Origin: Candidatus Dojkabacteria bacterium HGW-Dojkabacteria-1
GTDB lineage: Bacteria; Patescibacteriota; Dojkabacteria; SC72
Direction of reading: 5' to 3'
Length of the DNA: 64,000 bases
Assembly (NCBI GenBank): GCA_002840365.1
Contig: PHAO01000001.1
Coordinates: forward strand, 441,337 to 505,336
Both the position numbers and the translations under genes were made by a program. The first letter of the stretch is position 1. The number at the start of each line of letters is the position of its first letter. Below, piece after piece: positions 4,196 to 38,921 of this stretch. The notes below the pieces were generated by a model. That model made no database searches. It was not told the DNA's origin and saw only the letters and a list, made by a program, of their open reading frames with translations.

Positions 4196-4273
4196 GGTGG
4201 CTATAGCTCAATTGGTTAGAGCATCGGTTTGTGGAACCGAGGGTTGTGGGTTCAAGTCCCATTAGCCACCCCA
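4196..4273 (+). tRNA. tRNA-His(GUG): tRNA-His (anticodon GUG) with encoded G-1 and 3' CCA
   Basis: Cloverleaf folded by hand. Acceptor GTGGCTA pairs with TAGCCAC; D arm GCTC/GAGC; anticodon stem TCGGT/ACCGA with loop TTGTGGA; T arm GTGGG-TTCAAGT-CCCAT. An extra 5' G pairs with discriminator C. CCA is present in the genome. Confidence 0.85.
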
Positions 4274-5718: not shown

Positions 5719-8700
5719 ACTTTAAAAGATTCTACAATTTGGATTTCTTCTTCGCTTAAATCATATATTTTATAAAGGATTGTATCGATTTCAGATTCAA
5801 TATTTTTTATTTCGAGTACCATTTCTTTTAACTTTTTCTGCTTATCTTTAATCCAATTGTGTAATTTCTCCTTTTCTTCAATTGAAAGTCGTGTTTTCTT
5901 TTTATCAAGTATCTCTACAATTTGATTCCAACCATATTCGAGTATGTTTTTTAAATCTAAATGATATTCATTACCCAAAAATACACTGGTTTCTTCATTT
6001 AACATATAAAAATCTTTATACTTACTTTCAAGATCAAAAACATATTGCTCTATAACTAATATATCCTCTTTGTTAGTATCCTTGATTGGGAATAGGAGTA
6101 ATGGTCCCTTATCAACTTGTAATAATTCCCCAAGTAATTTACCTCTATTTCTGAACCAAAAATTACTAATAGTTGAATTAAGTAGTGCAGTTAAATACTT
6201 TAAATTAATCCTATCAGTAACAATAAAGTTGAGTGCTCTTGAACCATAATATTCAGAGATTGTATAGAAGAATGTAGGATATTTTACTCTAACACCACAC
6301 ACAATTTTATCTCCTGCTTTAAAGAACTGCTCATTTCTCTCCCTATGTAAATAATAGTAGGGTTTGTTAGGAGTTTTATACTTAATTTTCGCATCAATTA
6401 ATACATCTTTGTACTTATTAAAATGAGTATATAAATTGGGGAAATCCTCTAATTTTTTATCATCAAAATTTTTTGAGGACAGGTAAATAATAAAACTATT
6501 TGTACTTCCAACAGAATATCTTGAAACATTAGTATAAAAAGGTTTAATAAATTCTCTTTCAGAAATGTTAAATTTTGTTAAATCATCCACAATAAAACAC
6601 TCATCTGGTGCTCCCACAATTCCCTGTGCTACTTCATTATCATTCAGTGTAAATGTTCTACTCTTTGAAATCTTATCTATAACTTTTTCAAATTTCTCAT
6701 CTGAAAACACTATATTCCCATTACCTATTTTCTCCCTATCTATTGTTGCGTCAATACTTTTTATACTGTCAGAATAGTTTATACTCCTATCATTTAATAC
6801 AAGTTGAATCAAATCCAAACCAATCTGTTTATCTAATATCTTTGTATATTCAACTTTGTATCTATTCTTTACATTCTTTTCTTTTTTAAAAACAAATATC
6901 ATAGTTTGAATACCTGCATCTTTAAAAACTTGAAATCCTCCAAAATCAAAATAGGAGATGATTTCACCCTCATTAAGTATCTTTTCCCTAAAAATTGATG
7001 CACCAGCATTTGTAATCCAATTATTAGGAGCAATAAAACTTAAATATCCATTTTCCTTTAACAAATCAATAGATAAACAAGCAAAATAGGTCCAAATATC
7101 CATTTTCCCTTGATAATAAGGTCCATCATGTAATCCAGTAAATGCTGTTTTATTAGTATATTCTTTAATGTAAGGAGGATTCGCGACTATTACATCAAAA
7201 CCACCATTGTCAATGATATCTTTATACTCAACCCCCCAATTAAATGCTTTATCCCCAGCGATAGCGGGATCATCTATTAGTGAATTACCACACTTAATAT
7301 TTTTATCTAAATTCTGTAAAGGTTCAGTATTCTTCGCTGTTTTTAACCATAATGCAAGTTTTGTAATTTCCACACTTTCTTTGTTAAGATCTACCCCAAA
7401 GAGGTTATTAAGTAGGATTCCATTATTTACACTCGCAGGATCATAATCATCAATTTCAAGATTGAGTTTCCCGGACTCTCTTATATTCTGCAATTTCTCT
7501 TCAAATCTCCTAGCATATTCTTGTTTAAGATAAGTATGTGCTTGATTTAAAATTGCACCACTACCACAAGCAGGATCCAATATCTTAATTTCATTCAATT
7601 TATCGGGATTTTCTTCTAAAAACCTTCCTACTGTATTTTCTACTATGTATTTTGTAATATATTCTGGCGTGTAGAATATTCCATCTTTTTTCCTTCTTCC
7701 CTTTTTTTCAGTAACTGTTAAATCTTCAATCATCTCCAATCTATTATCACTATCCTTTACTTGCATTACATTCTCTTTAATCCTTTCTAAATCAGAAATA
7801 CTTTGCTCAAATATGTGTCCTAGGATATTAACATTAATATCTGTTTGATAATCATATTCCGCAAGTTCTAATATCCTTTTCCAAAAACTATCTAGAATGA
7901 TAAGGTTATCCAATATCTCATCTTTCTTAAACAATCCCCCATTATAAGCATTAATTGGTGGAGTAACTCTTGAATTTCCCTCATCAATAGATTTAAACAA
8001 ACCCTTAAACTCATTCCAAACTCTCTCATCACTACTAGCAAAAGAACTCAATGCTCTCTCATAGGTATTCTTCACTATTTCGTAGGGTAATAATTCTGTT
8101 GTATCTTCACAGAATAGTGTAAATACAATTCTATCTAGTAATTTCTGTGTTTTCTCTAATAATACCTCTGCTGATATACCTTTGTTATTTTCTAATAGAT
8201 GGTTAAGCAATCCCAATCTAACCTCTTTATACTTTGCATAATAATCATTTGTTATATCCTGCTCTTGTTGATTACTTTCCAAAGATAGTACATCTACAAC
8301 ACTGTTATCCTCTTTCTTAATTAGGTTATCTTTTGATAGTAAGAAATAGAATCTTTTAAATTCCTGCTCATCTAGTAAATCTAATACCATAAATCTTTCA
8401 AAATATTCTTGTGATCTAGATTTACTATATAAACGAATCTCTTTGAAATTTGATACTATAATCCATTTACATTTATCTTCTTTACTTGCATAGTTAAATG
8501 CTTGGTCAACAGGTGTTTGCTTTGTATCTCTGTGTTGCTTTTTATCTAAATCTGTTTTTGCATCCTTTAACTCAATTACAACACGAGTATCCTTATTATC
8601 TTTTGTAAAGAACCCTAAACTTCCATCTGGTTCACCAACATTGTTTTCTATTCTTGGATGTTGTATTAAGGTATATTCTTGCTCTGCGGAAGTTACATCA

Positions 8701-8900
8701 TCATAGTTAAGGATATTTTCAAAAAAGGTTTGTAGGAATTTACCTTGAATGCTTTTTTCTTTTGTATTTTCTAAATCACTATCCTTTAATGCTCTCTGCC
8801 ATTTATCTATTAATGTGTTAATCTCCTCTAATTTCTTTCCTGTTGGAAACTCAAAATTTGTGTATTTCTGCTGTAATAATTTCTTGTTAATTAGATTCAT
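5715..8900 (-). CDS. Type IIG/IIL restriction-modification enzyme (MmeI-like single-chain endonuclease plus N6-adenine methyltransferase)
   Basis: 1061 aa. N-terminal PD-(D/E)xK-type motif (EPDGSLGFF...VVIELKDAK). MTase motif I 'ILDPACGSGAILN' and motif IV 'VIVANPPYIKE' (gamma-class NPPY). Long C-terminal TRD-like region. 4-nt overlap with the recombinase gene. Confidence 0.7.
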   Translation of the reverse strand: MNLINKKLLQQKYTNFEFPTGKKLEEINTLIDKWQRALKDSDLENTKEKSIQGKFLQTFFENILNYDDVTSAEQEYTLIQHPRIENNVGEPDGSLGFFTKDNKDTRVVIELKDAKTDLDKKQHRDTKQTPVDQAFNYASKEDKCKWIIVSNFKEIRLYSKSRSQEYFERFMVLDLLDEQEFKRFYFLLSKDNLIKKEDNSVVDVLSLESNQQEQDITNDYYAKYKEVRLGLLNHLLENNKGISAEVLLEKTQKLLDRIVFTLFCEDTTELLPYEIVKNTYERALSSFASSDERVWNEFKGLFKSIDEGNSRVTPPINAYNGGLFKKDEILDNLIILDSFWKRILELAEYDYQTDINVNILGHIFEQSISDLERIKENVMQVKDSDNRLEMIEDLTVTEKKGRRKKDGIFYTPEYITKYIVENTVGRFLEENPDKLNEIKILDPACGSGAILNQAHTYLKQEYARRFEEKLQNIRESGKLNLEIDDYDPASVNNGILLNNLFGVDLNKESVEITKLALWLKTAKNTEPLQNLDKNIKCGNSLIDDPAIAGDKAFNWGVEYKDIIDNGGFDVIVANPPYIKEYTNKTAFTGLHDGPYYQGKMDIWTYFACLSIDLLKENGYLSFIAPNNWITNAGASIFREKILNEGEIISYFDFGGFQVFKDAGIQTMIFVFKKEKNVKNRYKVEYTKILDKQIGLDLIQLVLNDRSINYSDSIKSIDATIDREKIGNGNIVFSDEKFEKVIDKISKSRTFTLNDNEVAQGIVGAPDECFIVDDLTKFNISEREFIKPFYTNVSRYSVGSTNSFIIYLSSKNFDDKKLEDFPNLYTHFNKYKDVLIDAKIKYKTPNKPYYYLHRERNEQFFKAGDKIVCGVRVKYPTFFYTISEYYGSRALNFIVTDRINLKYLTALLNSTISNFWFRNRGKLLGELLQVDKGPLLLFPIKDTNKEDILVIEQYVFDLESKYKDFYMLNEETSVFLGNEYHLDLKNILEYGWNQIVEILDKKKTRLSIEEKEKLHNWIKDKQKKLKEMVLEIKNIESEIDTILYKIYDLSEEEIQIVESFKV

Positions 8901-8912
8901 AGTATATAGTAA

Positions 8913-10064
8913 TTATAAATTGTTTCCACCAACATTAATAGTATCAGTATAACTCTTCAAATCCAATGGTTTGTAGGTTTTTAAATAATTGCTTATAAAT
9001 TCAAAACATTCAAGGTTATCTTCAACAATATTTATACTATTCATTTTATACTTTATCCCATACCAACTTCTGCTGGAATATACACTTTCAATTATCTTCC
9101 GAAATTCTCTTACTCCGAATGTTTTACAGTATTCAATGAAACCATAGATAGATAAGAGGTTGTTTAACTTAATATCTGGATTATTACTAACTAACTCTCT
9201 GAAAAACAACTCTTTATTATCTATTGAGCAGTTTAATAGATTGTAGTTACTAACAATATCATTCCAAACACTTCTCAATACTGATAATGATATATCACTA
9301 TCACATACCTGCACTAAATTGAAATCCCTTTTGAAAACACTACGAATCTTCTGAATACTGTTATATCTTACTTCAATTCTTAATATCTCAAATTTCTTTT
9401 GGCTGTTTATACTATCAAAGATATTAAATTGTATAGCATTTCCTTTCTCAATAGATCTAGAATCGCTTATCCTTCCCTTTTGTAAATCTTTCTTCTTATC
9501 ATACAGAATTACCTCAAATGAATTAGTATGGAATCTAATACTATCTCCCTTATTTCTATAATCCTTTTCTGTTAAATCATACCTTAAACTTAAATCTGTT
9601 TTAGAAACTTCCTTTGTTATGAAATAAGGTATTACATATTCAGGTAAGGGTATATTCTTTGAAAAATGGACTTTACATACTAATGCTTTTTTCAGTACAT
9701 CCGATGATACCTCTACACTCATCTTTCTTAATGAATCTGATAACTTTTCAACTACATTCTCTATATCTTCATTCCTTAACTCATCAAAATTGTTTAAGAA
9801 CACTATCTTTGGGGCGGAGAATTGAATATACAGATAGATTAATGGTAGAGCATTTACCATTTTTTTTCTTAATGTAAGTTGCGGTTTATATATTCTATTC
9901 TTGTAATCTGCTTGTGTAGGGTTGTTATATGCTTCGATATACCCCCTTGCTCCAAAACGAGAGTAGGGCGGATAGTAGAAATTGTAGGTATTCGGAGTAA
10001 AAGCATTGTGATCTAATATCTTAAAATCCTTTTCGTTTAATCTTAATGTAATTGTATCGATCAT
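8913..10064 (-). CDS. Rep_trans-family (pT181 RepC/D-like) rolling-circle replication initiator
   Basis: 383 aa; motifs 'VILYDKKKD' and 'ILRIEVRY' resemble the 'RIYNKKQE' and 'RVEIELKR' signatures of the pT181 Rep family; N-terminal 'MIDTITLRL' similar to Rep_trans N-termini. Confidence 0.5.
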   Translation of the reverse strand: MIDTITLRLNEKDFKILDHNAFTPNTYNFYYPPYSRFGARGYIEAYNNPTQADYKNRIYKPQLTLRKKMVNALPLIYLYIQFSAPKIVFLNNFDELRNEDIENVVEKLSDSLRKMSVEVSSDVLKKALVCKVHFSKNIPLPEYVIPYFITKEVSKTDLSLRYDLTEKDYRNKGDSIRFHTNSFEVILYDKKKDLQKGRISDSRSIEKGNAIQFNIFDSINSQKKFEILRIEVRYNSIQKIRSVFKRDFNLVQVCDSDISLSVLRSVWNDIVSNYNLLNCSIDNKELFFRELVSNNPDIKLNNLLSIYGFIEYCKTFGVREFRKIIESVYSSRSWYGIKYKMNSINIVEDNLECFEFISNYLKTYKPLDLKSYTDTINVGGNNL

Positions 10065-10068
10065 ATTT

Positions 10069-10341
10069 TTATTTTTCTAATTTACTCACTCTACAACCAC
10101 TGTTTGTACCCTTTTTAACTATTTGTACTCTTTCATTGATTTGCATTAATGTGTATATGTACAATGAAAGAGGATTAGTAAGTTCCTCTTGGATAATTGG
10201 AGTAGGATATTCTTTTATTAGTACATTCCGAACCACTTTTCTCATTACAAAGCACAAAAGATACCAATTTAGGTATCTCTTTGATTTTCCCTGGGAGTGA
10301 AGATATAAAATATCATTCTGCCGCCAGTATCGGAACCTCAA
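10069..10341 (-). CDS. small hypothetical protein inside the island
   Basis: 90-aa ORF co-directional with island genes, 4 nt upstream of rep; no motif recognised; may not be real. Confidence 0.25.
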   Translation of the reverse strand: MRFRYWRQNDILYLHSQGKSKRYLNWYLLCFVMRKVVRNVLIKEYPTPIIQEELTNPLSLYIYTLMQINERVQIVKKGTNSGCRVSKLEK

Positions 10342-10544
10342 AGAGGTTGGGCAGTTTTAATATTTATATAACTAATTATAACACAATTTTTTGGACAACA
10401 AAAACTAGCAACTACATTAACAATTGCTCATGGTTAGGAAATAGGTTTTTGAAGTTATTTAGGAACAGGGTAGAATTTATAGATTTAATTGATTCAATAA
10501 ATTTCTGTTCAAAATACGCCCACTGCTTCACCCCATCTTACCTA

Positions 10545-11909
10545 CTAACTACTCGTAGTCCAAGTAACACCACCATACCTATCATTAATATTAGCTTTCT
10601 TGTTTGAATATATTTCATTCAATATTTTTGGTACTGCAGCTAAATCCTTTGGTATTTGAAATAGATGCTCAACAACCTTCCCTCCCTTTGAATCTCGTAC
10701 CCTTTGATCAATAACTAAATAAGCATTAGTAAAAAAATCATACGGAATATACTCACCACCAGGCAATATATCATCAACAGCTCTAGCATGCATTCTCCAA
10801 TTAGACATTTGTTTAATTGCAGCTACCCAATCACTAGGAGTTCTATTTAAATGCCTCGTGGTATTAAGAGACCTTACAACTGTATTGAAATCTATATTCT
10901 TTCTTTCTGCATCTGTTCTTAAAACCTTAGTATACATATAGTCCTCAACACCTACATTAGGTGTGTAATGAGTAATTGCTCTCATACCTGAGACATAGTT
11001 AGCAACCTTACTCATCAAAGCACCACCAGGAAGTGTAATAAACTTTTTCTTATTCTCTATTTGATATCCTAATTGAGTAGGCCCAACAGGAGTAGTAAGT
11101 AGTGGTTTACCACTTTCTTTTTCCATTATCGCAAACAAATCTTTTGTCCCAACAGCAGTTAATTTTCCTCTTACCAAATTGTCATACATAGTTCTAAAAG
11201 GAGTCTTAACTAAAAGACCCCTTTCATCATTAAAACTAAGAATTGTTTCAGCATCCATTTGATATACAAAATCAGGAGCATATCCCTTTACTATTTGTGC
11301 ATAAAGGAAATTAGAAACATCTCTTAATGCTCTAACCTTACCTTTATTCAAATCACTAGAATCTTTTTGTTGCCTAATTAAAAAAGCTCTGCTTTCTCCC
11401 TCTCTTTCATCAATCTCTGCTATCTCAACAGGAATATCCCAAGCAGTAGCAGCATCAATATCTTCAGTATTAGGTTTGCGAGTAATTATTCTTCTAATAC
11501 TTTCCTCTTTTAAATGCTTCTTAAGTAGAGAATCTATACGGTTATACATCTCTTCTCCAATTCTTGGTGATGCTCCTCCTCCATTGTTACATACTAATAG
11601 AAAATCCAGATCGATATTCGAATCTTTTGCTTGTACAAGTAAGTCTTGAAAAGATTTCTCAAACATTGAAGATGTTAAGTATGATTCATCCTCTTCCCAA
11701 AGGGAAATAACTACGCAACCACGAGGTCTTTTTCTTTCAACTTTGTTCTCATTTAAAGACTGTTCCAATTCTGTTACACCTTCTGAATACATTTCTAAAA
11801 TATTCTCTCTTAACACCTCGTTAGGATTTACTTCTGTAGCCTCTATACTGTTGTTAGGTTCCATATACATATACATATATAGGTTAATAATAGATGATAA
11901 CATATTCAA
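10545..11909 (-). CDS. island cargo protein of unknown family
   Basis: 454-aa ORF, first gene of the minus-strand island block; no Walker, NTase, nuclease or capsid signature recognised; three in-frame ATGs within (ATGTAT)3 at the 5' end. Confidence 0.5.
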   Translation of the reverse strand: MNMLSSIINLYMYMYMEPNNSIEATEVNPNEVLRENILEMYSEGVTELEQSLNENKVERKRPRGCVVISLWEEDESYLTSSMFEKSFQDLLVQAKDSNIDLDFLLVCNNGGGASPRIGEEMYNRIDSLLKKHLKEESIRRIITRKPNTEDIDAATAWDIPVEIAEIDEREGESRAFLIRQQKDSSDLNKGKVRALRDVSNFLYAQIVKGYAPDFVYQMDAETILSFNDERGLLVKTPFRTMYDNLVRGKLTAVGTKDLFAIMEKESGKPLLTTPVGPTQLGYQIENKKKFITLPGGALMSKVANYVSGMRAITHYTPNVGVEDYMYTKVLRTDAERKNIDFNTVVRSLNTTRHLNRTPSDWVAAIKQMSNWRMHARAVDDILPGGEYIPYDFFTNAYLVIDQRVRDSKGGKVVEHLFQIPKDLAAVPKILNEIYSNKKANINDRYGGVTWTTSS

Positions 11910-12925: not shown

Positions 12926-13066
12926 TCCTCTTACCAACCCTATAGTATCATGATATAATATCTCCTGTTCAGTCTTGAGACTTTGCGAGTTGGTCGCTAA
13001 CAAGGTTTCTGTTTTAGACTAAACAAATTGCACTTTAATAATCAACGAACAAATAGGAGATAATCG

Positions 13067-13711
13067 ATGAAAAAGCTTCTTGCTTTAATAGTCCTACTGG
13101 TACTGTGCACTGGCATTGTTCTGGTAACAGAGAAAGTTACAGCGCAAGGTCAGGACACTTGCCCGCAAGGTAATGGCTGGGTTAAGGTTGATGACTTGAG
13201 TGGATATTCTTACACTTTTGATGCTCCCGAAGGGACATTGATTGTGGAGAGCTGCTACAAGGCATCTACCACTGTTGTGTTTGAAACTTACAATCCCCCC
13301 CAGGAATCAGTGACTATTACAAGCACTGTAATAAATCCTGGAGGTCAGATTGCTGAGTTATCACATGCAAGTTTCAAGCTTGTAGTAAAACCAACGGCAA
13401 CACCTCCGATTGAGGAAACGCCTACAGCAACTCCTCCGGTCGAGGAAACGCCTACAGCAACACCTCCGGTCGAGGAAACACCAACGGCAACGCCTCCAGT
13501 TGAGGAAACGCCTACAGCAACACCTCCGGTCGAGGAAACACCAACGGCAACACCTCCAGTTGAGGAAACGCCAAGAGCAACAGAGACACCAGGAGAAATT
13601 ATCACTACGGTTCAAACCGGTGGTGGTGGTATCGCTCCTCTCTTAATCCTGCTAGGCTTTGGAGGTGCATTCCTTCTTTGGGCATTTTTTCGCTCTCGCA
13701 TCGCGAGGTAA
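13067..13711 (+). CDS. secreted cell-surface protein with a conserved N-terminal domain, Thr/Pro/Glu-rich decapeptide repeats and a C-terminal TM anchor
   Basis: Signal peptide. An N-terminal domain of about 80 aa is paralogous to the protein at 37676-38785. TATPPVEETP repeated about 6 times. C-terminal 'GGGG-hydrophobic-RSRIAR' sorting-signal-like tail. GC-richer than the genome by eye. Confidence 0.7.
   Translation: MKKLLALIVLLVLCTGIVLVTEKVTAQGQDTCPQGNGWVKVDDLSGYSYTFDAPEGTLIVESCYKASTTVVFETYNPPQESVTITSTVINPGGQIAELSHASFKLVVKPTATPPIEETPTATPPVEETPTATPPVEETPTATPPVEETPTATPPVEETPTATPPVEETPRATETPGEIITTVQTGGGGIAPLLILLGFGGAFLLWAFFRSRIAR
13391..13590 (+). repeat. 30-nt tandem repeat (about 6.5 copies) encoding the TATPP(V/I)EETP linker
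   Basis: Near-identical 30-mers 'cc(a/t)ac(g/a)gcaac(a/g/t)cctcc(g/a)(a/g)t(t/c)gaggaaac(g/a)' seen directly. Confidence 0.85.
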
Positions 13712-14420
13712 AAAAATAGCCCTTGTGGGAGTTATCCTAGTGCTGATAACTGCTTTTGTTTCAGCACAAACAGTCAAAGAAAATGTGCCAGAAGTGGCGC
13801 AAAGTACTGAGACTGTCGTAGTAACATCTCCTACCCATACCCTTTCGCCTTCGGCAACTCATATCCCTACACAAGTAGTAGTGGAACAAATTGAGGAGCC
13901 AACCCCAATTCCAACCTTACAGCCAACGGAAGAACCGGAGAACATCAGTCTCCAAGGTATCTATACCGTGACTGTCCAGTCGGATGCAATAACCGATTGG
14001 TATAGGAGCTTCTTTAAGGAGCTTAAGGTGGAACTGTGCCAAGAGCCCTGCACTGCAGAGCAAATAATGGCGCAGTTGGGAAAACAAAGCGACAAAGAGT
14101 GGGTAGCAGTCCAACACGGAAGAGTCTTGTACGTCCATTCCGGTTGGAGTATAACTTCTGGTCCCGAGTTTGGAGAAATACTTCTCAGAGTTCATAACTC
14201 TGGAGACCTGAAGTCTGCTGTTATCTGCCTAGAGGAAAGGCGCTGCTTCCAAGTAGTGGACCTTGTACTCCTAGGTAGGGGATCTATAGGTGATAACATA
14301 TCCACTGGAGAGTTGTTCAGCGTAGAACATGGAGACTACTTCATCGTAACTTGCAGTGAACGCTTAATTCCGGGTTTGGAAACACCCAAACTGATCCTCC
14401 AGATTAGAAAAATCGAATAA
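13659..14420 (+). CDS. secreted protein, Thr/Pro-rich N-terminal region plus a Cys-containing C-terminal domain, unknown function
   Basis: ORF-track start at 13659 overlaps the upstream gene by 53 nt; the true start may be GTG 13725, giving a signal peptide MGVILVLITAFVSAQ; GC-richer region. Confidence 0.5.
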   Translation: MEVHSFFGHFFALASRGKKIALVGVILVLITAFVSAQTVKENVPEVAQSTETVVVTSPTHTLSPSATHIPTQVVVEQIEEPTPIPTLQPTEEPENISLQGIYTVTVQSDAITDWYRSFFKELKVELCQEPCTAEQIMAQLGKQSDKEWVAVQHGRVLYVHSGWSITSGPEFGEILLRVHNSGDLKSAVICLEERRCFQVVDLVLLGRGSIGDNISTGELFSVEHGDYFIVTCSERLIPGLETPKLILQIRKIE

Positions 14421-14427
14421 GTGCAAA

Positions 14428-14477
14428 AAGGAAGGGTCTTCGCGACCAAAGCAATAAAGATCCTTCCTTCGATTTTC
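14428..14477. terminator. imperfect 13-bp hairpin between convergent genes (candidate bidirectional terminator)
   Basis: AAGGAAGGGTCTT-(15 nt)-AAAGATCCTTCCTT followed by a T-rich tract. Confidence 0.35.
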
Positions 14478-24634: not shown

Positions 24635-25396
24635 ATGGATAAATACAAAAATCTCAGGGTATATAACATTGTAATGGGTATCTTCCATTTTATCCAAAGT
24701 GTTTTAATGTTTTTCTTAAGTAATGATTTTTCACTACCAGTAAACACAAGCTATTTAAAATTCGATGTTCAATCATTAACTCTGCAACCACTTTTAGAGA
24801 ATGTCGGAGATTTAAGAGTAGGATACTTAGTAGCTCTTTTCTTACTACTTTCTTCAATTTCTCACTTTGTAATTTCTCTTCCAAAGGTATATGAGTGGTA
24901 TATTGCGAATTTAAAGAAAGGTATTAACTATGCGAGATGGTATGAATATGCAATAAGTTCCTCAGTTATGATTGTCGTAATAGCAATGCTTGTTGGAGTA
25001 TACGATCTTAGTTCCCTTCTTCTCATCTTCTTTATGAATATGATGATGATTCTCTTTGGCCTAATGATGGAACTACATAATCAAGCAACAAAGAGAACAG
25101 ATTGGACTTCATACATATTTGGTTGTATTGCTGGAATTCTTCCATGGGTAGTAATAGCATTGTATCTTTTCGAATCTGGAGATGGAGAAAACAAAGCTCC
25201 TGATTTCGTATATTGGATATTCTTTAGTATATTCCTATTCTTTAATACCTTTGCCGTTAATATGGTACTACAATACAAGAAAGTCGGTAAATGGAGTGAC
25301 TATACATACGGAGAAAAAGTATATATTTTACTTAGTTTAGTTGCAAAATCTCTACTTGCATGGCAAGTATTTGCAGGAACATTAAGACCAGTATAA
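24635..25396 (+). CDS. heliorhodopsin (7-TM retinal protein)
   Basis: 253 aa. Strong resemblance to heliorhodopsin 48C12: 'FHFIQ...NDF(S/A)LP', 'RW(Y/V)EY(A/S)(I/L)SSSVMIV', 'FGCIAGI(L/V)PW' and TM7 'LSLVAKSLLAWQ(V/I)F(A/S)GTL' with Lys238. Glu104 is at the counter-ion position. Confidence 0.8.
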   Translation: MDKYKNLRVYNIVMGIFHFIQSVLMFFLSNDFSLPVNTSYLKFDVQSLTLQPLLENVGDLRVGYLVALFLLLSSISHFVISLPKVYEWYIANLKKGINYARWYEYAISSSVMIVVIAMLVGVYDLSSLLLIFFMNMMMILFGLMMELHNQATKRTDWTSYIFGCIAGILPWVVIALYLFESGDGENKAPDFVYWIFFSIFLFFNTFAVNMVLQYKKVGKWSDYTYGEKVYILLSLVAKSLLAWQVFAGTLRPV

Positions 25397-25399
25397 GGA

Positions 25400-25615
25400 T
25401 TACTCTGCTGGGATAGGTCCACCATGATCACCACTGATGACAATACCATCAGGTCCAAAAGCGCCCATTCTTACCATCTCCATTAATTCTCCGATGGTAA
25501 GTGCGTCAGGGTCAAAATCATCAGGATTATATCCAAGCGATAAAAGAATATCTCTCAAACTTGAAGATGGTTCTTCTCTTGGACTTTCTTCTGTGTAGTT
25601 TATTTCATTTTCCAT
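25400..25615 (-). CDS. small acidic hypothetical protein
   Basis: 71-aa ORF. Confidence 0.3.
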   Translation of the reverse strand: MENEINYTEESPREEPSSSLRDILLSLGYNPDDFDPDALTIGELMEMVRMGAFGPDGIVISGDHGGPIPAE

Positions 25616-25636
25616 AGTTAGATTATACCATTTTTT

Positions 25637-26050
25637 CTAAAAAAGGTCTTCACAACAACTTTCTCTGATTCTTTCTAGATGTTCACGGTAAAGGAAAATA
25701 GCAGGTATTCCACTTTCTTCAATTCTTTGTCTTTGTCTCTGTTTTCTTAATCTTGTCTTCCTATCTGAGTTCCCATTACCACCATTCTCATAAAGAAGAG
25801 TTATCTCAACAATCTTACCTGTTCTTGTTTTCGGATTAAAAACAAAGAAATCTGGGACACAATCTAAATCCTCAATGTAGGGCTCTCTGTATACAATCAT
25901 ACCCCTGTCAATTAATAGTTCTAGAAATCTACCCTCGTAGTCATTCATTCCATATTCAGGAAATTCTACAGGAGAATCTACATAAAGATTGGGATACAAA
26001 TCTGATATATATCTGGAGAGTTCTTCGTATGAATATTCTTGTTCTAGCAT
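25637..26050 (-). CDS. hypothetical protein
   Basis: 137 aa; Arg/Gln-rich segment; possible PD-(D/E)xK-like core (DLDCVPDFFVF...EIT), unverified. Confidence 0.4.
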   Translation of the reverse strand: MLEQEYSYEELSRYISDLYPNLYVDSPVEFPEYGMNDYEGRFLELLIDRGMIVYREPYIEDLDCVPDFFVFNPKTRTGKIVEITLLYENGGNGNSDRKTRLRKQRQRQRIEESGIPAIFLYREHLERIRESCCEDLF

Positions 26051-26313
26051 GTAGGTAAAATATGTAGCAGGTATATCACCATAGTAAATGCAAAAGGGAT
26101 ATCTTACAAGACCGATAGTGTTGATTAATAGGGCGGAAAGAAATATAATTGCACATTAATACCAATGTACCACAAATACTTGATATTAACCTAGTACAAC
26201 TATATAGGTTGTATTGTTCTTTAAAAAGTGAATAGAATCGAATTGATGGACGATTAATGTTTTTTCGTGAATATCAATCGTCCATCAAAATTCAAACCAG
26301 AAAGGAGTTCGCC

Positions 26314-27693
26314 ATGTTGTTCATACTAGCGGGGCTAGCAACGATAGGCGGAATCCTTTTCGTTGCGTTGCCAGAAGTTGTAAAACAAGATATCCTCTTC
26401 AAGATTGTTGAGGCTCTATCTAAAGGAGCGCACACTGCTTCCGATATTGTTGCAAAAGCCGGAGAAGGAATTGTGAAATTCCTACTTCGAGGAACCATAG
26501 TTGGTACAGTAGCCGTAGTAGGCTTCTCTGTGCTAGACATGGTTGCTGATCATAGATTGCAAATGCCAACGTCACAGGTCCAGATATTGAAAGATTACTG
26601 GCACTTGATTGACAAGGCAGCACAAGAGAGCGACACCGACCCATATATGATTGCAGCCGTTTGGCGAGTGGAGAACTCTCTGCTACCATCTGGCCCAAAC
26701 AATCAGCAGGGAATCGGTGGATTCTACTCTGCGGTACAAGCTGGGGAGAGATTTCCTGTTGGCCAACTCTCAGATGGAGAAATCCTCAGTCAGTTGACAC
26801 GCATTGGAAATATACTCCATGGTAAGTGCCCAGGTGTAGATATTAGCTATGCATCCCAAAACAACCATTCTGAAGATCACATGTGGAGCAGAGCTCTTTG
26901 CTTTGCAACCTACAATGGATCTCAAGGAACACTTGTAAGGGGTGTGTATCAATCAAATGGCCAAGTCTTTAACAACCTCCCTGGACATCCTCAAACAAAC
27001 GGCCTAAACATTTGTTTGACAGATGGTTGTACCAGGAGAGGACCTATGCAACATGATGGCTATGAAACAAGCTACAGAAAGATCAAAGCCCATGTTGTAA
27101 GTCATCCTCAGATGACAGGAGGTAAAGTAACAGCACCAATAGAAGCAGTAATACGTATAACCGACAAGGTCTCTGGAGAATTAGAGCGAATGGCAATGGC
27201 TTTAGACGCCATAACCATAGCTTGGAAAGCTCAGAACATTGTCGAAGAGGCATATGCTTCAGTTGTTAAACCCCCACCAGAGGGTAAACTAGCATGGCCT
27301 GGTCCAAGCAATACCTGGATTCAGTTCGCCTTTGGAAGTCCACCGGGATACTCCTGGTCGAGTTTTCATAACGGCGTAGACATAGATGCTCCAGGGTTTA
27401 CACCCTTCACAGTGACTTCCGCTTCAACAGGGAAAGTCATATATGCCCAACGCATGGATTCATGCAATGTTGGCGTAGTGAAGGTTCAATGGACCCCAGA
27501 GTTAGTAATAAACTATGTTCATTTGGATCCAGATTCTTTAATGGTAGGGAAAGGTGACAAGGTAGAAGTAGGGCAAATTATCGGAACCGTTTTTAACGGC
27601 AAAACCACCTGCTCGGATGGACCACACTTGCACTTCATGGTCGTTCGAAATGGTGTACCAATCAATCCACAACAATTTCTAGTAAAGGAGTAA
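26314..27693 (+). CDS. membrane-anchored bifunctional cell-wall hydrolase: lytic-transglycosylase-like domain plus C-terminal M23 (LytM) peptidase
   Basis: M23 motifs 'FHNGVDI' (HxxxD) and 'HLHFMV' (HxH). Middle 'IAAVWRVENS' resembles the SLT catalytic Glu-Ser region. RBS AAAGGAG before ATG 26314; the ORF track starts at 26257. GC-richer than the genome by eye. Confidence 0.6.
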   Translation: MLFILAGLATIGGILFVALPEVVKQDILFKIVEALSKGAHTASDIVAKAGEGIVKFLLRGTIVGTVAVVGFSVLDMVADHRLQMPTSQVQILKDYWHLIDKAAQESDTDPYMIAAVWRVENSLLPSGPNNQQGIGGFYSAVQAGERFPVGQLSDGEILSQLTRIGNILHGKCPGVDISYASQNNHSEDHMWSRALCFATYNGSQGTLVRGVYQSNGQVFNNLPGHPQTNGLNICLTDGCTRRGPMQHDGYETSYRKIKAHVVSHPQMTGGKVTAPIEAVIRITDKVSGELERMAMALDAITIAWKAQNIVEEAYASVVKPPPEGKLAWPGPSNTWIQFAFGSPPGYSWSSFHNGVDIDAPGFTPFTVTSASTGKVIYAQRMDSCNVGVVKVQWTPELVINYVHLDPDSLMVGKGDKVEVGQIIGTVFNGKTTCSDGPHLHFMVVRNGVPINPQQFLVKE

Positions 27694-27696
27694 TTG

Positions 27697-28212
27697 ATGG
27701 AAGCAATACCTGTACCACGCGAGCTTATCGTCCCCCTTACCGCCGTTTTGCTTGCCACGGTGACATACCTCCTCAAGGATGTCAATAAGGGGAAGGGACT
27801 TGGCACACAAATCTGGAACATTGCTCAAGGCATGTTCGGGGTTCTGGCGGCATTCTGGCTGGTTCTCAATGTCATGTTGAGATTAACCGGAATTGCCTGG
27901 TCCCGCTTCTTAACAAACCAGTATGTTTCGGCTTTTTTAGCGGAACTCACAATCGAGACAGAAACTTTTCCCGATTGGGTTGTAATACTGGTCGCAGTAG
28001 GTCTGTTCTACCTCAGCATCAAGGTTGCAGCTGGAAGTGGAACAAGCGTCTGGGGAAAGATAGGGAACATCTTGAAATACTATGCCTTGTTTTTGATCTT
28101 ACTCGGCATCGTAAGCAGCATTCTGTTCGCACTCGTGAACACTGTTGCCAAGAGTTTCCTCAGCAATCCATACGTCATCTCTCTGTTGAAAGAATTTGGC
28201 TTCGTGCCATAG
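27697..28212 (+). CDS. integral membrane protein (4 TM), translationally coupled to the M23 hydrolase gene
   Basis: TAA-ttg-ATG junction with the upstream gene; hydrophobic; GC-richer. Confidence 0.5.
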   Translation: MEAIPVPRELIVPLTAVLLATVTYLLKDVNKGKGLGTQIWNIAQGMFGVLAAFWLVLNVMLRLTGIAWSRFLTNQYVSAFLAELTIETETFPDWVVILVAVGLFYLSIKVAAGSGTSVWGKIGNILKYYALFLILLGIVSSILFALVNTVAKSFLSNPYVISLLKEFGFVP

Positions 28213-28340
28213 ACGGAGAGAAAGAGGAGAGGGCCGTAGGCTTTCACAGATACGGCCCTTTGCCTCTCCCATTCGATTCTATTCACAGATTTAAAGAGAT
28301 TTCATAAATATGAAATTTCTTTCAGATTTAACAGTTAAAA

Positions 28341-30701
28341 ATGGATCCTAAAGAAGAAATACAAAAAATTAAAGAATACGTAGGAGGATTACTTACACCA
28401 CAAGAAATTGTGGTAAGTGAGTACAAAGAAGCTGAGGATTTTCTAGAAGAAAATCTTCCTTCCAAAGAACCTACAGCAGAAGAATATCTTGCTGCATATC
28501 AAAAGATTGAAGCACTAAGAAACTCAAAACATCCTCATAGACAGCAGGAGCATGCTGATTTAGCAATGCTCATTGAAAGGGGTTTACCTTTTTCCTCTAA
28601 AGGTTTCAATCTAATTGCTTTTCAACTCTATTCCGAAGTAATGAATAGAGTACCTAGAGAAGAATCACTAATTGATGGATCTATCTTTATCGATTTTGAT
28701 CAATGGCTCTATGGGTATCCATCATTCAGATTGTGGAGAATGGTAAAACAAGAGAATCAATCACCCCAAGAAAGAGAAGCGGTAGAAAGAATGATATGGA
28801 GATTGCTAACATATTCCACAGAACTTCATGCCCAACTTGATGAAGAGTATCAGGAGAAGAAAACAATTGAGAAAGAGCTCCAAGACAAAAAAGCAAAAGA
28901 GAAAAAACCAATTAATATAGTACCAAAGGTTATTACTAAAAATATTAAGAAAGTGGCTGAAAAGATCTCAGAAGGAAACCCAGACGCCCTTGAGGATTTA
29001 GGGAATACTGTAGAGAGATTCAACAGAACAAGAACATATTTCGAAACAATGATAAAAATATTTAGGAATCCAGAGAATCTCTTTGTTAATTTTGATCAAA
29101 AGATAGGGTTTTGGATGAGTGAAGAAGGAGAAGTAGTCCTTTCTCACCTAATTACTTCAAACAGAGAAGATTTCAGAAACATTTACTACTCAATACTAGA
29201 AAGACTTATCTCTGAAGCAGAATTAAAAAGAGATACTGAAATGCGTGGTAGAGTAGGTACAAGACACGCACTACGCCTTAAAAGGATTTATCCCTTTTCA
29301 AAAGATTTTACAGAAGTTGAATATTGGAGAGGGATTAATTTGCCAAGCAAAAGGAAAGCTAAAGCAGAATCAGAAGTAGTATTACCAAGAAAAAATGATG
29401 GAGATGATAGGAATGGATTTCAAATCCTAGGTTCCTTGTTAAGGTCAAATGATATTAGAGATGCAAGAATTTACAAAAAAACTATGCTTGCCTTTATGGA
29501 ATACATAGAGAAAAACAGAACTGCAATTGCAGATTATGAAATTACAAAAAATTTCTTTAAAACTCAGTATGCATTTGATTTAATCTTTAACCTTCCTGAA
29601 GAGGAAAAAGAAATTGAAGAAGAGGATAGCTCTTTCAATTTTGTTCTTCGAAGATACCTTTGGTTAAAATACGGACCTGAATATACAGAGGAAGAGCCTT
29701 CAGCATTTGAAATAAAACTTTGGAAACTTCAAAAGAATATATTGCTCAAGGGAGTAAGAATTTTTGAAGATTTGTTTAGAGCACAAGATCAATTAGGACA
29801 AGATGGCTATGAAATACATCGTGACTTCTATCAAGAAGCTAGAAATGATTTAGAAGAACAGTATACAGAAAGTGGTTGGCATTTAATAATGTATACAACA
29901 AGAAGATTTAGTGACGTTAGAGATATTTTTTCGAAATCATTTGAAAAATTTAGAATACATTTTTCTCCCCAAGATGAAAAACTCTTCTATCTTTCGGTAC
30001 TACTTGGAACTTTGGATTTTGCACTAACAATGAAACACAGAGAGAATCTAAAGAAAGTTGGAGCAAGCACATTAAGATACTTACATGGAACAAAGGTACC
30101 AACAGCATTTGAAGAGGTATCAGAGAAAGCAGAACAAGAATTAGGCATATGGAGATTTAAGAAAGATACCAAAGATCCAAGCAATCCAAGACTTCAATTT
30201 GATAATAATTTAATAAATTCTCTTCGTAATCTTTCAGTATTCTGGGGTAGGGGGTATGGTGTAACTGTCTTTATCGAACAATCAGGCATAAGGGTAAAAA
30301 ATCCATTACATACAATGGGAGAGGAAAAAGAAGTGAAAAAGGGAGACCAGATTATTAAGGAGAGACCAAATAAAGGAGGAAGGGATGAAGTATTAATACC
30401 ATGGGAAATCATTTCAAAAGCAACTCCTCAATTTGATTACATTAACTGGACCGACTCTGTACTCAGACTTGTTGGAAAATATAGGGCAACAATGGGAAGG
30501 AAAGATTTAGATTGGATATCTGATTTAGCAGCCAAAGGTCCTGCAGTTATTCGTTTTGAAGCTGCAGGTAGCGAGAGAAACTATGAATTGCCTCCTTTAC
30601 CAAATGCCAGAGAAGTTGCGAAGATATTAAAGGAAATCGCAAAACAGATGGTTGTATTAGAGACTCCTCATCCAAAGGATATTCTAAAGAAGTTAGAATA
30701 A
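28341..30701 (+). CDS. large (786 aa) cytoplasmic protein of unknown function
   Basis: Long uninterrupted ORF, charged/helical composition; no TM, nucleotide-binding or catalytic motif recognised. Confidence 0.6.
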   Translation: MDPKEEIQKIKEYVGGLLTPQEIVVSEYKEAEDFLEENLPSKEPTAEEYLAAYQKIEALRNSKHPHRQQEHADLAMLIERGLPFSSKGFNLIAFQLYSEVMNRVPREESLIDGSIFIDFDQWLYGYPSFRLWRMVKQENQSPQEREAVERMIWRLLTYSTELHAQLDEEYQEKKTIEKELQDKKAKEKKPINIVPKVITKNIKKVAEKISEGNPDALEDLGNTVERFNRTRTYFETMIKIFRNPENLFVNFDQKIGFWMSEEGEVVLSHLITSNREDFRNIYYSILERLISEAELKRDTEMRGRVGTRHALRLKRIYPFSKDFTEVEYWRGINLPSKRKAKAESEVVLPRKNDGDDRNGFQILGSLLRSNDIRDARIYKKTMLAFMEYIEKNRTAIADYEITKNFFKTQYAFDLIFNLPEEEKEIEEEDSSFNFVLRRYLWLKYGPEYTEEEPSAFEIKLWKLQKNILLKGVRIFEDLFRAQDQLGQDGYEIHRDFYQEARNDLEEQYTESGWHLIMYTTRRFSDVRDIFSKSFEKFRIHFSPQDEKLFYLSVLLGTLDFALTMKHRENLKKVGASTLRYLHGTKVPTAFEEVSEKAEQELGIWRFKKDTKDPSNPRLQFDNNLINSLRNLSVFWGRGYGVTVFIEQSGIRVKNPLHTMGEEKEVKKGDQIIKERPNKGGRDEVLIPWEIISKATPQFDYINWTDSVLRLVGKYRATMGRKDLDWISDLAAKGPAVIRFEAAGSERNYELPPLPNAREVAKILKEIAKQMVVLETPHPKDILKKLE

Positions 30702-37015: not shown

Positions 37016-37676
37016 CAATCCAACCAGATATTAATCTTCTGTCTCCATTTCTTTCTAAACATGTGGAGATAATTAAATCTGCTCCTCCTGGTGTTCTATT
37101 GTCTTCAAGTACTCTAGCATCTTTGTACCAAATAGCTTGAAGCACTGTATCTCCAATCTTTATCTGTGTACCATCTAACTGTCCATTAGAGTAAAGTAGG
37201 TGAAGTAAATCTCCAAAAAGATAGTGTTTGTTACCTAGAGACAGTCCATTATGAGTATGTAATTGATATGTATTATCCATTACAAATATAGGACCACCTA
37301 AGACAATATTTCTGTTTTGATCAAGTTGTCTTTGCCATTTATAATCACCTAAAAGTAGTTCATTTAACTCATTTACAGTATCTTCTGAATACTCTCCTAA
37401 ATATGTGTATTTAAGGGATATTTCTTTTCCTTCCCATCTACTTGGTATATCTCTGTTTAATACTGAGAAAGTATAAAGGTAAGTATTACCATCTACAAAT
37501 GCCAATGATTTACCCAAAGGATTCTCCTGTTCAACAAAAGAAGTAGAATCAGCAACAGCATATATTTCAGTGTTAATAACTTCTTCTTTTGTATTAGGAA
37601 TAAAAACAAAAATTGTGTAGATAGCGGTACTAATTACAAGTACCGCTACCAATATATTCAATATCTTAAACTTCAT
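36990..37676 (-). CDS. sortase-family transpeptidase
   Basis: N-terminal TM anchor; His (NKHYLFGD), Cys in 'LIISTCLE' (compare sortase TLxTC) and Arg (RRLISGW); 228 aa; overlaps the stop of the upstream surface-protein gene. Confidence 0.55.
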   Translation of the reverse strand: MKFKILNILVAVLVISTAIYTIFVFIPNTKEEVINTEIYAVADSTSFVEQENPLGKSLAFVDGNTYLYTFSVLNRDIPSRWEGKEISLKYTYLGEYSEDTVNELNELLLGDYKWQRQLDQNRNIVLGGPIFVMDNTYQLHTHNGLSLGNKHYLFGDLLHLLYSNGQLDGTQIKIGDTVLQAIWYKDARVLEDNRTPGGADLIISTCLERNGDRRLISGWIVISPEELQ

Positions 37677-38785
37677 TAAACTCTATTTATGTATTCTTTA
37701 CCTACATATATTAATGATATACCTGTTACAAGCATTAGTAATGATTGTATTAGGTAAACAGTAGATCTATCCCCTGCAGCTGTAGCAGCAAGTACTACTG
37801 TTGTAGTGCCTTTTACTTCTGTAGTTACACCTTGTACATCTCCATCATCATCTTCATCTTCACCATCCCCTGTTGGTAAACAGAGTGGGTCATCAGCATA
37901 TGTAGCTGTTTCCCAAGGACAAAAATCTCTTTCCTCGTAATCCTTCTCTATTTCAGTACTACATACGATTTCCGAATTTTTAGAATCAAGATTTGATACA
38001 ACTCTCTCTCTTACAAACCTGCTCTCATCCGATGGGTCCACAGTCCAATCGGACCATTCACCAATATATTCTGTTGTTTTTACGCAATAACATGGGGTAT
38101 TGTTTGCAGCCTTAGTATCATCCATAACCCATTGCTGTGTTGTATTGTTCCACCAGTATAGTATAACTGTTTGTGGTTTTTCATCGTATAAAGTTTCAAA
38201 AAGATACGGATCTGTAAATCTTGTTGCTTCGGTATGATTAAATCCAAACAACTTATCCAAACTATTTATTCCCCCTGGAACTACTTTATATCCTAATTGG
38301 ATAGGGAAATATGTATCAGACTTGTCTTTATGAAATACCCTCCAAACCCTTACCATATTGATATGGTCGTAACACATTGAGGTTAAAACAAGATCATGCT
38401 TCTCTTCTTCAACAATAGGCTTATCAATTAATAAAAATGAGGCATGAGAAAGATCTGCTATTTGCCCACCTGGATTAACAGCAGTACTTTCAACCAAGAC
38501 CTTATCCTTAGGAGGATTCACATCATAATATGTAACGACGGTAGATGCTTTATAACATACTTTTGAAACCAATTTCCCTGTAGGTGCAGTATATTCATAA
38601 GTTTTTGATGTTAAATCATCTATTTTAATCCAACCACCGCCTGTATTTGGACATGTTTCTTGACCCTGTCCTTGACCATTATTAGCCTCCACACCCTTAG
38701 GAGAAAGAGTTAAAAACAAACCTAATGTTAATGAAAAAACTAAAAGAAAACTCGCAAAGATTCTTAATTTACTTTGCATAACCAA
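37676..38785 (-). CDS. secreted cell-surface protein, paralog of 13067-13711, with C-terminal TM anchor
   Basis: Signal peptide; N-terminal 'TCPNTGGGWIKIDDL...CYKAST...VNPGGQIADLSHASF' domain aligns with the 13067 protein; acidic tract, then TM and 'KEYINRV' tail. Confidence 0.65.
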   Translation of the reverse strand: MVMQSKLRIFASFLLVFSLTLGLFLTLSPKGVEANNGQGQGQETCPNTGGGWIKIDDLTSKTYEYTAPTGKLVSKVCYKASTVVTYYDVNPPKDKVLVESTAVNPGGQIADLSHASFLLIDKPIVEEEKHDLVLTSMCYDHINMVRVWRVFHKDKSDTYFPIQLGYKVVPGGINSLDKLFGFNHTEATRFTDPYLFETLYDEKPQTVILYWWNNTTQQWVMDDTKAANNTPCYCVKTTEYIGEWSDWTVDPSDESRFVRERVVSNLDSKNSEIVCSTEIEKDYEERDFCPWETATYADDPLCLPTGDGEDEDDDGDVQGVTTEVKGTTTVVLAATAAGDRSTVYLIQSLLMLVTGISLIYVGKEYINRV

Positions 38786-38921
38786 TTAATGATAATTTAT
38801 ATATCATCAATCGGTTTCGCCACTCGCTATCCACTCTTTAGGCGACCATATTACCAAGAGAGGGTCACTGCATTTGATACATATATTTTACTACTCTAAC
38901 TATTGAAAATCAATATAGTAA

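Follow-up and report, generated by a model that had tools for sequence, protein, structure and literature searches.

Within the AT-rich stretch of 64,000 nt analysed here (the window), which comes from Candidatus Dojkabacteria bacterium HGW-Dojkabacteria-1, two adjoining GC-rich genes encode a putative membrane-anchored wall hydrolase (open reading frame ORF1) and a small membrane protein (ORF2). On balance, the pair is best read as a cell-wall hydrolase operon, carried on a structured mRNA, that is inherited vertically in Dojkabacteria-type Patescibacteria and conserved within the clade. This reading is based on a helix (P1) that would close the predicted transcript by joining the untranslated regions (UTRs) at its 5' and 3' ends, on a GC excess that is kept by the pair in every relative found, and on excess structure in the coding region.

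Composition and layout of the gene pair

The GC content of the window is ~0.32, and between positions 26300 and 28300 it rises to 0.40-0.515 in 200-nt windows, compared with ~0.30-0.35 outside. In a per-gene comparison within the stretch, where the median GC content at third codon positions (GC3) is ~0.22, ORF1 showed a GC of 0.45 and a GC3 of 0.395 (robust z 5.4), and ORF2 a GC of 0.476 and a GC3 of 0.572 (robust z 10.8). These values confirm the GC-rich island that the initial annotation of this DNA had recognized by eye. The deviation is present at all three codon positions, and a similar one was found in just one other gene pair of the window, at 13067-14420.

The island had been placed at 26257-28260. 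The gene pair is real, but the unit is longer and extends from a predicted promoter at ~26121 to a predicted terminator at ~28329. ORF1 (26314..27693, + strand, 459 aa; the longest ORF opens at 26257) most likely starts at the ATG at 26314, which is M20 of the 478-aa reading, and not at 26257, since the Shine-Dalgarno (SD) sequence GAAAGGAG is read at 26300..26307 (+), 6 nt 5' of this ATG, and the homologues begin there. The 478-aa version had no exact match in the protein look-up, which is consistent with a different true start; residue numbers below nevertheless follow this reading. ORF2 (27697..28212, +, 171 aa) is joined to ORF1 by the sequence TAA-ttg-ATG, and AAGGAG in the tail of ORF1 lies 7 nt 5' of the ORF2 ATG, in agreement with the translational coupling proposed earlier. 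A third gene, ORF3 (28341..30701, +), lies outside the repeats that bracket the pair and follows it in all loci.

Conservation of the GC excess

The trio composed of the hydrolase, the small membrane protein and a protein of ~770-800 aa was present in every relative found. Upstream neighbours in the relatives encode polysaccharide deacetylase (PDA), DUF218, dCTP deaminase, cupin and GH3 proteins, and downstream neighbours encode IscS, NifU and MnmA. In L003, the most divergent locus of the Dojkabacteria type, the trio lies among genes for murC/D/E/F-type ligases, FemAB, murB, murA and mraZ. In two distant loci, L160 and L161, the lysozyme-like domain of ORF1 is ~35-40 % identical to that of the window, and the partner genes and genomic contexts differ. 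A search of 5.8 billion proteins yielded nine full-length homologues of ORF1 (62-99 % identity), all from the same AT-rich clade; all other matches covered the M23 domain alone. One of the loci, L005 (CAZUZI010000018.1), is labelled 'uncultured Candidatus Saccharibacteria bacterium' and the exact protein match of the window is labelled Dojkabacteria, so one of the two labels is probably imprecise.

In each relative the pair alone was GC3-rich, with 0.36-0.49 for ORF1 and 0.41-0.72 for ORF2 against ~0.15-0.36 for the flanking genes. The GC3 of the two genes was 0.36 and 0.54 in L001 (flanks ~0.15-0.30), 0.37 and 0.54 in L002 (~0.17-0.28), 0.49 and 0.72 in L003 (~0.22-0.34) and 0.40 and 0.50 in L004 (~0.21-0.25). 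The distant loci gave 0.47 and 0.53 in L160 (~0.24-0.29) and 0.37 and 0.41 in L161 (~0.22-0.36). The third-position shift is mainly from T to C, with G also raised and CGN replacing AGA.

When the window was compared with L002, L003 and L005, the fourfold degenerate sites of ORF2 and of the flanking genes had identities equal or close to those that composition alone would give, and the GC content at these sites was 0.24-0.73 in the pair versus 0.03-0.21 in the flanks. Since a relic of transfer would be erased at such divergence, the composition must be actively kept: the GC excess is maintained, not fading. That lineages had recently exchanged the whole cassette was rejected because the synonymous sites of ORF2 are as diverged as those of the flanking genes. 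For ORF1 the identity at fourfold sites was 0.48-0.52 against an expected 0.29-0.30 (flanks 0.33-0.53, expected 0.35-0.44). This reduction in synonymous divergence was uniform along the gene, with no local conservation peak of the kind an embedded RNA element would give.

Pairing between the ends of the predicted transcript

A predicted sigma-70-type promoter, TTGATT-17-TATAAT, was located at 26121..26149 (+) by a consensus scan. Six orthologous loci share its ATAGTnTTG...TATAAT motif unchanged, and the following ~75 nt are variable. A repeat search revealed a perfect 16-nt inverted repeat situated exactly at the borders of the island, its arms 2027 nt apart. The left arm of P1, GTGAATAGAATCGAAT, lies in the 5' UTR (26228..26243, +) and is perfectly complementary to the conserved right arm, ATTCGATTCTATTCAC, in the 3' UTR (28271..28286, +). 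Three hairpins accompany this helix on the same strand. P2 (26243..26288), with the stem TTGATGGACGAT / ATCGTCCATCAA and a loop whose length varies between loci, is stacked on P1 in the 5' UTR; P3 (28224..28266) is a GC-rich hairpin of the 3' UTR not followed by a T-run; P4 (28287..28329), the predicted intrinsic terminator, is an AT-rich hairpin accompanied by a T-run. Since both arms of P1 lie 3' of the conserved promoter and 5' of the T-run hairpin, they are predicted to reside on one transcript.

RNAalifold, unaided, predicted P1, P2, P3 and P4 from an alignment of eight Dojkabacteria-type loci. In this set none of the 128 cells of P1 was broken, and the helix changed from A-U to U-A once, from U-A to G-C twice and to G·U three times. 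In the structure as a whole 97.7 % of cells were paired and 14 pairs had changed on both sides, including six in P3 and five in the stem of P4; none of 500 shuffles reached this level and slid controls gave 34-48 %. The inverted repeat was present in 10 of the 10 loci for which both arms were available. In the distant loci its arms are GTGAATAGGGAT / ATCCCTATTCAC, 2778 nt apart (L160), and AACAAGTGAATAGGGG / CCCCTATTCACTTGTT, 2381 nt apart (L161). Both retain the 8-nt core GTGAATAG, and the AATC/GATT extension is replaced by GGAT/ATCC and GGG/CCC, a fully compensatory change; in L161 the helix also extends outwards as AACAA/TTGTT. In both loci a 5' hairpin precedes the ribosome-binding site and a GC hairpin the right arm, their sequences being unrelated to P2 and P3, and L160 has in addition an AT hairpin after the right arm, equivalent to P4.

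P1 was complete in the minimum free energy folds of whole predicted transcripts (2.2-2.9 kb) in all four of the divergent lineages tested, and the duplex energies of its arms ranged from -17.6 to -25.6 kcal/mol. The frequent G·U pairs, all of them on the sense strand, and the variable loop of P2 both favour folding of RNA over a double-stranded DNA site. P1 ends ~57 nt upstream of the SD sequence, which is unpaired in the consensus structure. Taken together, it is highly probable that the P1 helix is real in RNA. The core GTGAATAG and the left flank TTCTTTAA(A/C)AA are invariant, as is the P2 stem within Dojkabacteria; because this invariance exceeds the needs of pairing, a sequence-specific reader probably exists.

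The region had no match in Rfam at the gathering threshold, only sub-threshold matches at chance level (E up to 10). P3 resembles domain V of group II introns, but a reading as such an intron was rejected, as only 86 nt precede the ORF and no Rfam match was found. Conservation of a -10-like TAGAAT inside the inverted repeat does not extend to L160 and L161. A mini-ORF (MNR...) with a GTG start could be opened by the core GTGAATAG at 26228-26257 (+), with 9 codons here, 12 in L160 and 8 in L161; this reading frame is probably not meaningful, as it has no SD sequence and runs into the main ORF in L003. A metagenome scan with a 15-nt inverted-repeat pattern returned 120 stretches, none with the adjacent hairpin motif, i.e. 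chance matches.

Excess structure in the coding region

The structure of the coding region was compared with that of synonymous-codon shuffles, which keep the protein and the codon counts and, in a local block version, also preserve local composition. For ORF1 the whole-gene and local block z-scores were -6.5 and -3.1 in the window, -5.5 and -3.7 in L003 and -6.5 and -3.4 in L160; the local block z-score in L161 was -5.1. ORF2 of the window gave -3.2 and -1.7. Control genes ranged from +0.8 to -2.4 in the whole-gene test (15 genes) and from -0.6 to -2.0 in the local block test (three genes). Consensus folding of ORF1 in an 8-sequence codon alignment, judged against codon-column shuffles, gave z -10.6 for codons 1-60, -10.5 for codons 31-90 and a mean of -4.6, and the second half of ORF2 gave a consensus-structure z of -7.4. 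Among the controls, GH3 had a mean of +0.6, the PDA windows were mostly between +0.6 and -1.5 (one at -3.1), and ORF3 had a mean of -1.2, one outlier at its 5' end included.

The structure of the coding region is supporting evidence rather than proof. The high GC3, the reduced synonymous divergence, the excess structure and the closing helix jointly point to selection acting on the fold of the whole message.

ORF1, a membrane-anchored protein with two catalytic domains

ORF1 comprises, in this order, two N-terminal transmembrane (TM) segments, a GH23/SLT-like domain, a helical linker and an M23 metallopeptidase domain. The membrane anchor noted earlier is present, but it consists of two TM segments (counted from the ATG at 26314) and not one. 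The M23 domain (27364..27669, +) was recognized by Pfam as PF01551 (residues 370-471, 66.1 bits versus a cut-off of 28.7, E 3.4e-18) and by PDB profile matches to LytM, lysostaphin, ShyA and SpoIIQ. Across 10 sequences no change occurs in its zinc and catalytic residues, H371-x3-D375, H422 and H457-x-H459, so that the M23 assignment made from the HxxxD and HxH motifs holds and the active site is, as judged from these residues, complete. Complete HxxxD, H and HxH motifs are common to ORF1 and the active M23 endopeptidases LytM, lysostaphin, ShyA and MepM; the M23 domain of ORF1, unlike theirs, is fused to a helical linker and, ahead of that, a lysozyme-like domain.

The middle domain (26548..27126, +; residues ~98-290) was less easily assigned. 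Scans of Pfam, NCBIfam and PHROG gave no SLT match in ORF1, and the Pfam SLT profiles PF01464 and PF13406 did not match it even at E 1; a distant relative, P0134, had a sub-threshold SLT_2 match (E 0.003, 17 bits vs 24.3). With a shallow 9-sequence profile nothing was found in PDB, nor in an hhalign comparison with a family of TM-SLT-M23 proteins, and a first AlphaFold2 run on a 10-sequence full-length alignment returned a predicted local distance difference test score (pLDDT) <50 for the middle domain, which made it unusable. An exhaustive profile search with this domain provided 17 cluster representatives, two junk repeat proteins and one fragment being removed, and the deeper alignment resolved the fold where the shallow profiles had failed. 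AlphaFold2 on the 17-sequence alignment reached a pLDDT of 90.2, and the 17-sequence profile matched goose-type lysozymes (E 0.003-0.007), MltE and MltF. In the distant relatives the same domain is fused to M23 or CHAP peptidases.

The 17-sequence alignment contains an invariant E139, the motif N149-G-Q-G-I-G-G-F-Y157 and Y219-N-G. E139 is the Glu of the 'VENS' string singled out in the initial annotation. The profile alignment places it on the Glu of 'SRES' (Glu-Ser) in g-type lysozymes, which we take to be the catalytic residue of these enzymes and the counterpart of E139; hhalign to the TM-SLT-M23 family (E 1e-4, 58 % probability) places it on the 'ET' of that family. As modelled, the middle domain has a lysozyme-like alpha-helical fold, and it constitutes a divergent GH23-like family missed by current hidden Markov model (HMM) libraries. 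Compared with the GH23 enzymes MltF, MltE, Slt70 and goose-type lysozyme, the ORF1 domain is only 10-15 % identical, carries the motif variants E-x-S, NGQGIGGFY and YNGSQ, and has an extra Cys-rich C-terminal subdomain; six cysteines of ORF1 are invariant.

The proposal of an SLT-like region with a Glu-Ser therefore stands as far as fold and residue are concerned, on the strength of the deep profile and the AlphaFold2 model, but not as a Pfam SLT match: of the two HMM assignments suggested for ORF1, M23 was recovered and SLT was not. The overall enzymology, i.e. a membrane-anchored lysozyme-like plus M23 protein coupled to a four-TM protein, agrees with the profile, fold and TM predictions.

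The partner proteins ORF2 and ORF3

ORF2 is identical to the hypothetical protein CVU76_02475 of Candidatus Dojkabacteria bacterium HGW-Dojkabacteria-1. Four TM segments were predicted, as annotated before, arranged as an internal repeat of a two-TM unit (E 3e-5). Only eight homologues were found, all of the same clade; scans of Pfam, PHROG and NCBIfam gave no family match, and BLAST detected no similarity to the partner genes of L160 and L161. Translational coupling would make ORF2 in fixed proportion to ORF1, and its most likely role would be to control or position the ORF1 enzyme in the membrane.

ORF3 (786 aa) has normal GC and no TM segment, and counterparts of ~770-800 aa lie 3' of the pair in all loci. 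Pfam, PHROG, NCBIfam and PDB searches gave no match, and a candidate assignment as a VirB4-like ATPase was rejected because neither a family nor a PDB match was found. Although an orphan, ORF3 is a true partner of the pair, since homology links its last 160 aa to the third gene in the distant locus L160 (E 4e-17). It has no obvious SD sequence, and its first 60 codons (28341-28520, +) gave an alifold z of -8.1 against codon-column shuffles, unlike the rest of the gene.

Alternative explanations

The initial annotation had seen the island as a possible foreign insert, a weapon or entry factor or else the remnant of a conjugative element, with a layout recalling phage and type IV secretion system (T4SS) enzymes. 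Horizontal gain from a GC-richer donor, phage, conjugative element or T4SS would account for the compositional deviation, which is real, and it draws support from the TM-SLT-peptidase layout, which is that of monoderm VirB1-like T4SS hydrolases and some phage lysins. TraG of pIP501 and PrgK of pCF10 likewise combine an N-terminal anchor, an SLT/lysozyme domain and CHAP or M23; Patescibacterial VirB1 homologues have a membrane anchor, a lysozyme domain and a second peptidase domain, often M23 (PMC12102498); GC-rich TM-SLT-M23 proteins of ~310 aa exist elsewhere; and the M23 domain of ORF1 matches PHROG lysis and tail families. Yet the same anomaly is found in the syntenic orthologues of all relatives, down to loci as distant as L160 and L161, and with the flanking synonymous sites saturated a relic ought to be faint by now. 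Within ~10 kb of the pair there was no integrase, transposase, T4SS or phage gene, nor virB4, virD4 or any other T4SS gene ~10 kb to either side in the window, L001-L005, L160 and L161, and no direct repeats or mobility genes were seen at the island borders. Unlike the VirB1-like hydrolases, ORF1 is syntenic with envelope housekeeping genes, and its lysozyme-like domain is unseen by Pfam SLT models. Viral contigs, phage records and plasmids contained only M23-domain-level matches and no full-length relative; ORF2 and its neighbours had no PHROG match, and neither a phage gene context nor a recognizable holin of a holin-endolysin cassette was found; no GC-rich donor lineage appeared among the protein matches, and the alignment to the TM-SLT-M23 family is marginal. 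Orthologues in conserved synteny are present in every relative, but the compositional deviation is also real and common to all of them, and a foreign origin, whether as an insert or as a phage, conjugative or T4SS remnant, is quite improbable. The same operon and RNA could also serve an enzyme aimed at the wall of a host bacterium, as an attachment or feeding factor of an episymbiont. Patescibacteria are commonly epibionts, lysozyme and peptidase homologues of Ca. Southlakia epibionticum are essential for epibiotic growth (PMC12102498), both catalytic sites of ORF1 appear intact, and the six invariant cysteines suggest an extracytoplasmic enzyme. ORF1 is, on the other hand, anchored by two TM helices and not secreted, its neighbourhood is that of own-envelope metabolism (in L003 the mur/mraZ cluster), and it shows no linkage to virB4 or pilus genes, which makes a host target rather unlikely.

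Two further explanations concern the inverted repeats as DNA sites. A recombinase could flip the 2-kb segment at the 16-bp repeats and uncouple the genes from a fixed promoter, giving phase variation: the perfect repeats bracket the genes exactly and leave the conserved promoter outside, the two arms evolve together as recombination sites would, the invariant 8-bp core suggests a sequence-specific reader, and the nearest recombinase gene, that of a large serine recombinase, lies 20 kb away (4252-5718). All 11 assembled loci nevertheless have one orientation, no recombinase is adjacent in any locus or within 10 kb, two loci have G·T differences between the arms, and P2, P3, P4, the sense-strand-only G·U pairs and the structured coding region would be left unexplained. 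The repeats might equally be the termini of a non-autonomous mobile cassette, possibly domesticated, with the two genes as passengers; they lie at the exact island edges with subterminal hairpins inside both ends, and the genomic context of L003, L160 and L161 differs from the rest. Here the single copy per locus set, with none elsewhere in the window, the lack of a visible target-site duplication or detectable transposase, and the absence of the inverted-repeat-plus-hairpin motif from viral contigs speak against it, as does the fact that ORF3, although outside the repeats, always moves with the pair, so that relocation is not repeat-mediated. Both the switch and the cassette seem very improbable.

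Several points also weigh against the operon on a structured mRNA. The promoter, the terminator and hence the presence of both arms on one RNA are predictions made from sequence. Thirteen of the 16 P1 pairs and the lower stem of P2 are invariant in the Dojkabacteria-type set and uninformative for pairing, just 2-3 independent compensatory events in P1 fall within this close set, the strongest covariation being that of the two distant loci, and compensation in an inverted repeat is equally expected from concerted evolution of recombinase or transposase sites. In the coding region covariation is modest, with an RNAalifold covariation term of ~0, and the z-score of excess structure falls by about half when local composition is preserved. 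The T-to-C shift at third positions could be partly due to translational selection. As to function, a host-wall target competes with an own-wall target, given the lysozyme and peptidase genes essential for epibiosis in another lineage (PMC12102498).

Proposed mechanism and comparison with known systems

For the conserved hydrolase operon we propose that ORF1 would be held in the membrane by its two N-terminal helices and expose two catalytic domains, the GH23 lysozyme-like one to cleave the glycan strand and the M23 zinc endopeptidase to cleave peptide cross-links. The envelope-gene neighbourhood and the membrane anchoring suggest that the enzyme serves growth or division by acting on the wall of the cell itself, a target that we moderately favour. 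The GC-richness would be kept because the ~2.2-kb bicistronic mRNA is selected as a compact, heavily paired RNA, in which the 5' and 3' UTRs would pair over 16 bp in P1, with P2 and P3 just inside and the terminator P4 just outside. P1 might hide both RNA ends intact. Alternatively, RNase III could cut P1, a plausible substrate as a 12-16-bp duplex stacked on P2, after which P2 at the 5' end would block RNase J and P3 at the 3' end would block PNPase. In either case the RNA structure would set the lifetime and the translation rate of a potentially self-lytic enzyme. Candidate Phyla Radiation bacteria retain rnc, rnj and pnp, the genes of RNase III, RNase J and PNPase (PMC12641178). Such control of stability by RNases is conceivable, with somewhat less than an even chance.

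Pairing between UTRs is known to control RNase action in the icaR mRNA of Staphylococcus aureus (PMC3868564) and, through a 14-bp 5'/3'-UTR interaction, in the hbs mRNA of Bacillus subtilis (PMC5737220). As would be the case with P1, the 3' UTR of icaR pairs with its own 5' UTR, and the duplex is an RNase III substrate that sets the protein output (PMC3868564). The icaR motif, however, covers the SD sequence and blocks initiation, whereas P1 leaves the SD sequence free; P1 is also longer (12-16 bp perfect), spans 2.0-2.8 kb with two genes and encloses an over-structured, GC-rich coding region. The long-range helix of hbs is of similar length and modulates ribonuclease access, its 5' structure protecting against RNase J (PMC5737220), but hbs is a short monocistronic mRNA, the nuclease is RNase Y, and covariation across deep lineages and a compositional island are absent from that case.

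Two other classes of RNA resemble the proposed arrangement. In precursor rRNA, flanking sequences form stalks that close a long GC-rich structured RNA, and RNase III cleaves this helix; in hok mRNA, 5'-3' pairing keeps the message of a toxic membrane protein inert. Unlike these, the predicted RNA described here is protein-coding, bicistronic and 2.2-2.9 kb long, and has no antisense RNA partner.

In its most far-reaching form, which we offer as a speculation, the transcript could be an RNA capsule in which gene-wide GC codons fold a 2-3-kb message, RNase III cuts the stalk much as it does when rRNA matures, and the long-lived mRNA, hairpin-capped at both ends, meters the hydrolase through slow translation; the second pair at 13067-14420 would then hint at a general, undescribed control of envelope genes in AT-rich Patescibacteria.

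Other features of the window

The second GC-rich pair (13067-14420, +) has a GC3 of 0.36 and 0.44. The first gene encodes a protein with a signal peptide, PTATPPVEET repeated seven times, and a TM segment with basic tail at the C terminus; the product of the second, 253 aa long, is an orphan. As with ORF1, the mRNAs of both genes are over-structured (synonymous-shuffle z -3.9 and -6.8). A search for an inverted-repeat bracket around this island (12990-13014 / 14425-14449) yielded an 8-nt perfect core and 72 % complementarity, which is at chance level.

The operon is preceded, ~0.9 kb upstream, by a heliorhodopsin gene (24635-25396, +; PF18761, E 1e-102) that the closest relative, L001, shares and that L002 and L004 lack. 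Two small orphan genes encoding 71 aa and 137 aa lie at 25400-26050 (-), directly upstream of the promoter; they are conserved in L001 and L126 and have no family match, and L127 has possible counterparts of 78 and 132 aa, by position alone. A c-di-GMP-II-GAG riboswitch (38801-38884, -; RF03169, 50.7 bits vs 40) was found just upstream of an orphan 369-aa gene (37676-38785). The large serine recombinase gene (4252-5718, -; Resolvase, Recombinase and Zn ribbon domains) overlaps the end of tRNA-His (4197-4273) and is followed by large same-strand ORFs, two of which, 8913-10064 and 10545-11909, were scanned and gave no Pfam match; the region 4197-11909 may be an integrated element.

Implications

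On the protein side, the analysis reveals a small, previously unrecognized GH23-like family that is missed by Pfam, is fused to M23 or CHAP, and is linked to two orphan partners that could regulate wall cleavage in Patescibacteria. A compositional island in a small AT-rich genome is usually attributed to horizontal transfer, and the one described here is ancient, syntenic and maintained. Together with its conserved RNA architecture it offers a testable example of whole-mRNA structure selection shaping local GC. Very few bacterial 5'-3' UTR interactions are known, and beside icaR and hbs this would be a third, unusually large and evolutionarily conserved case, in a phylum whose post-transcriptional control is essentially unexplored and which keeps only a reduced RNase set of RNase III, RNase J and PNPase.

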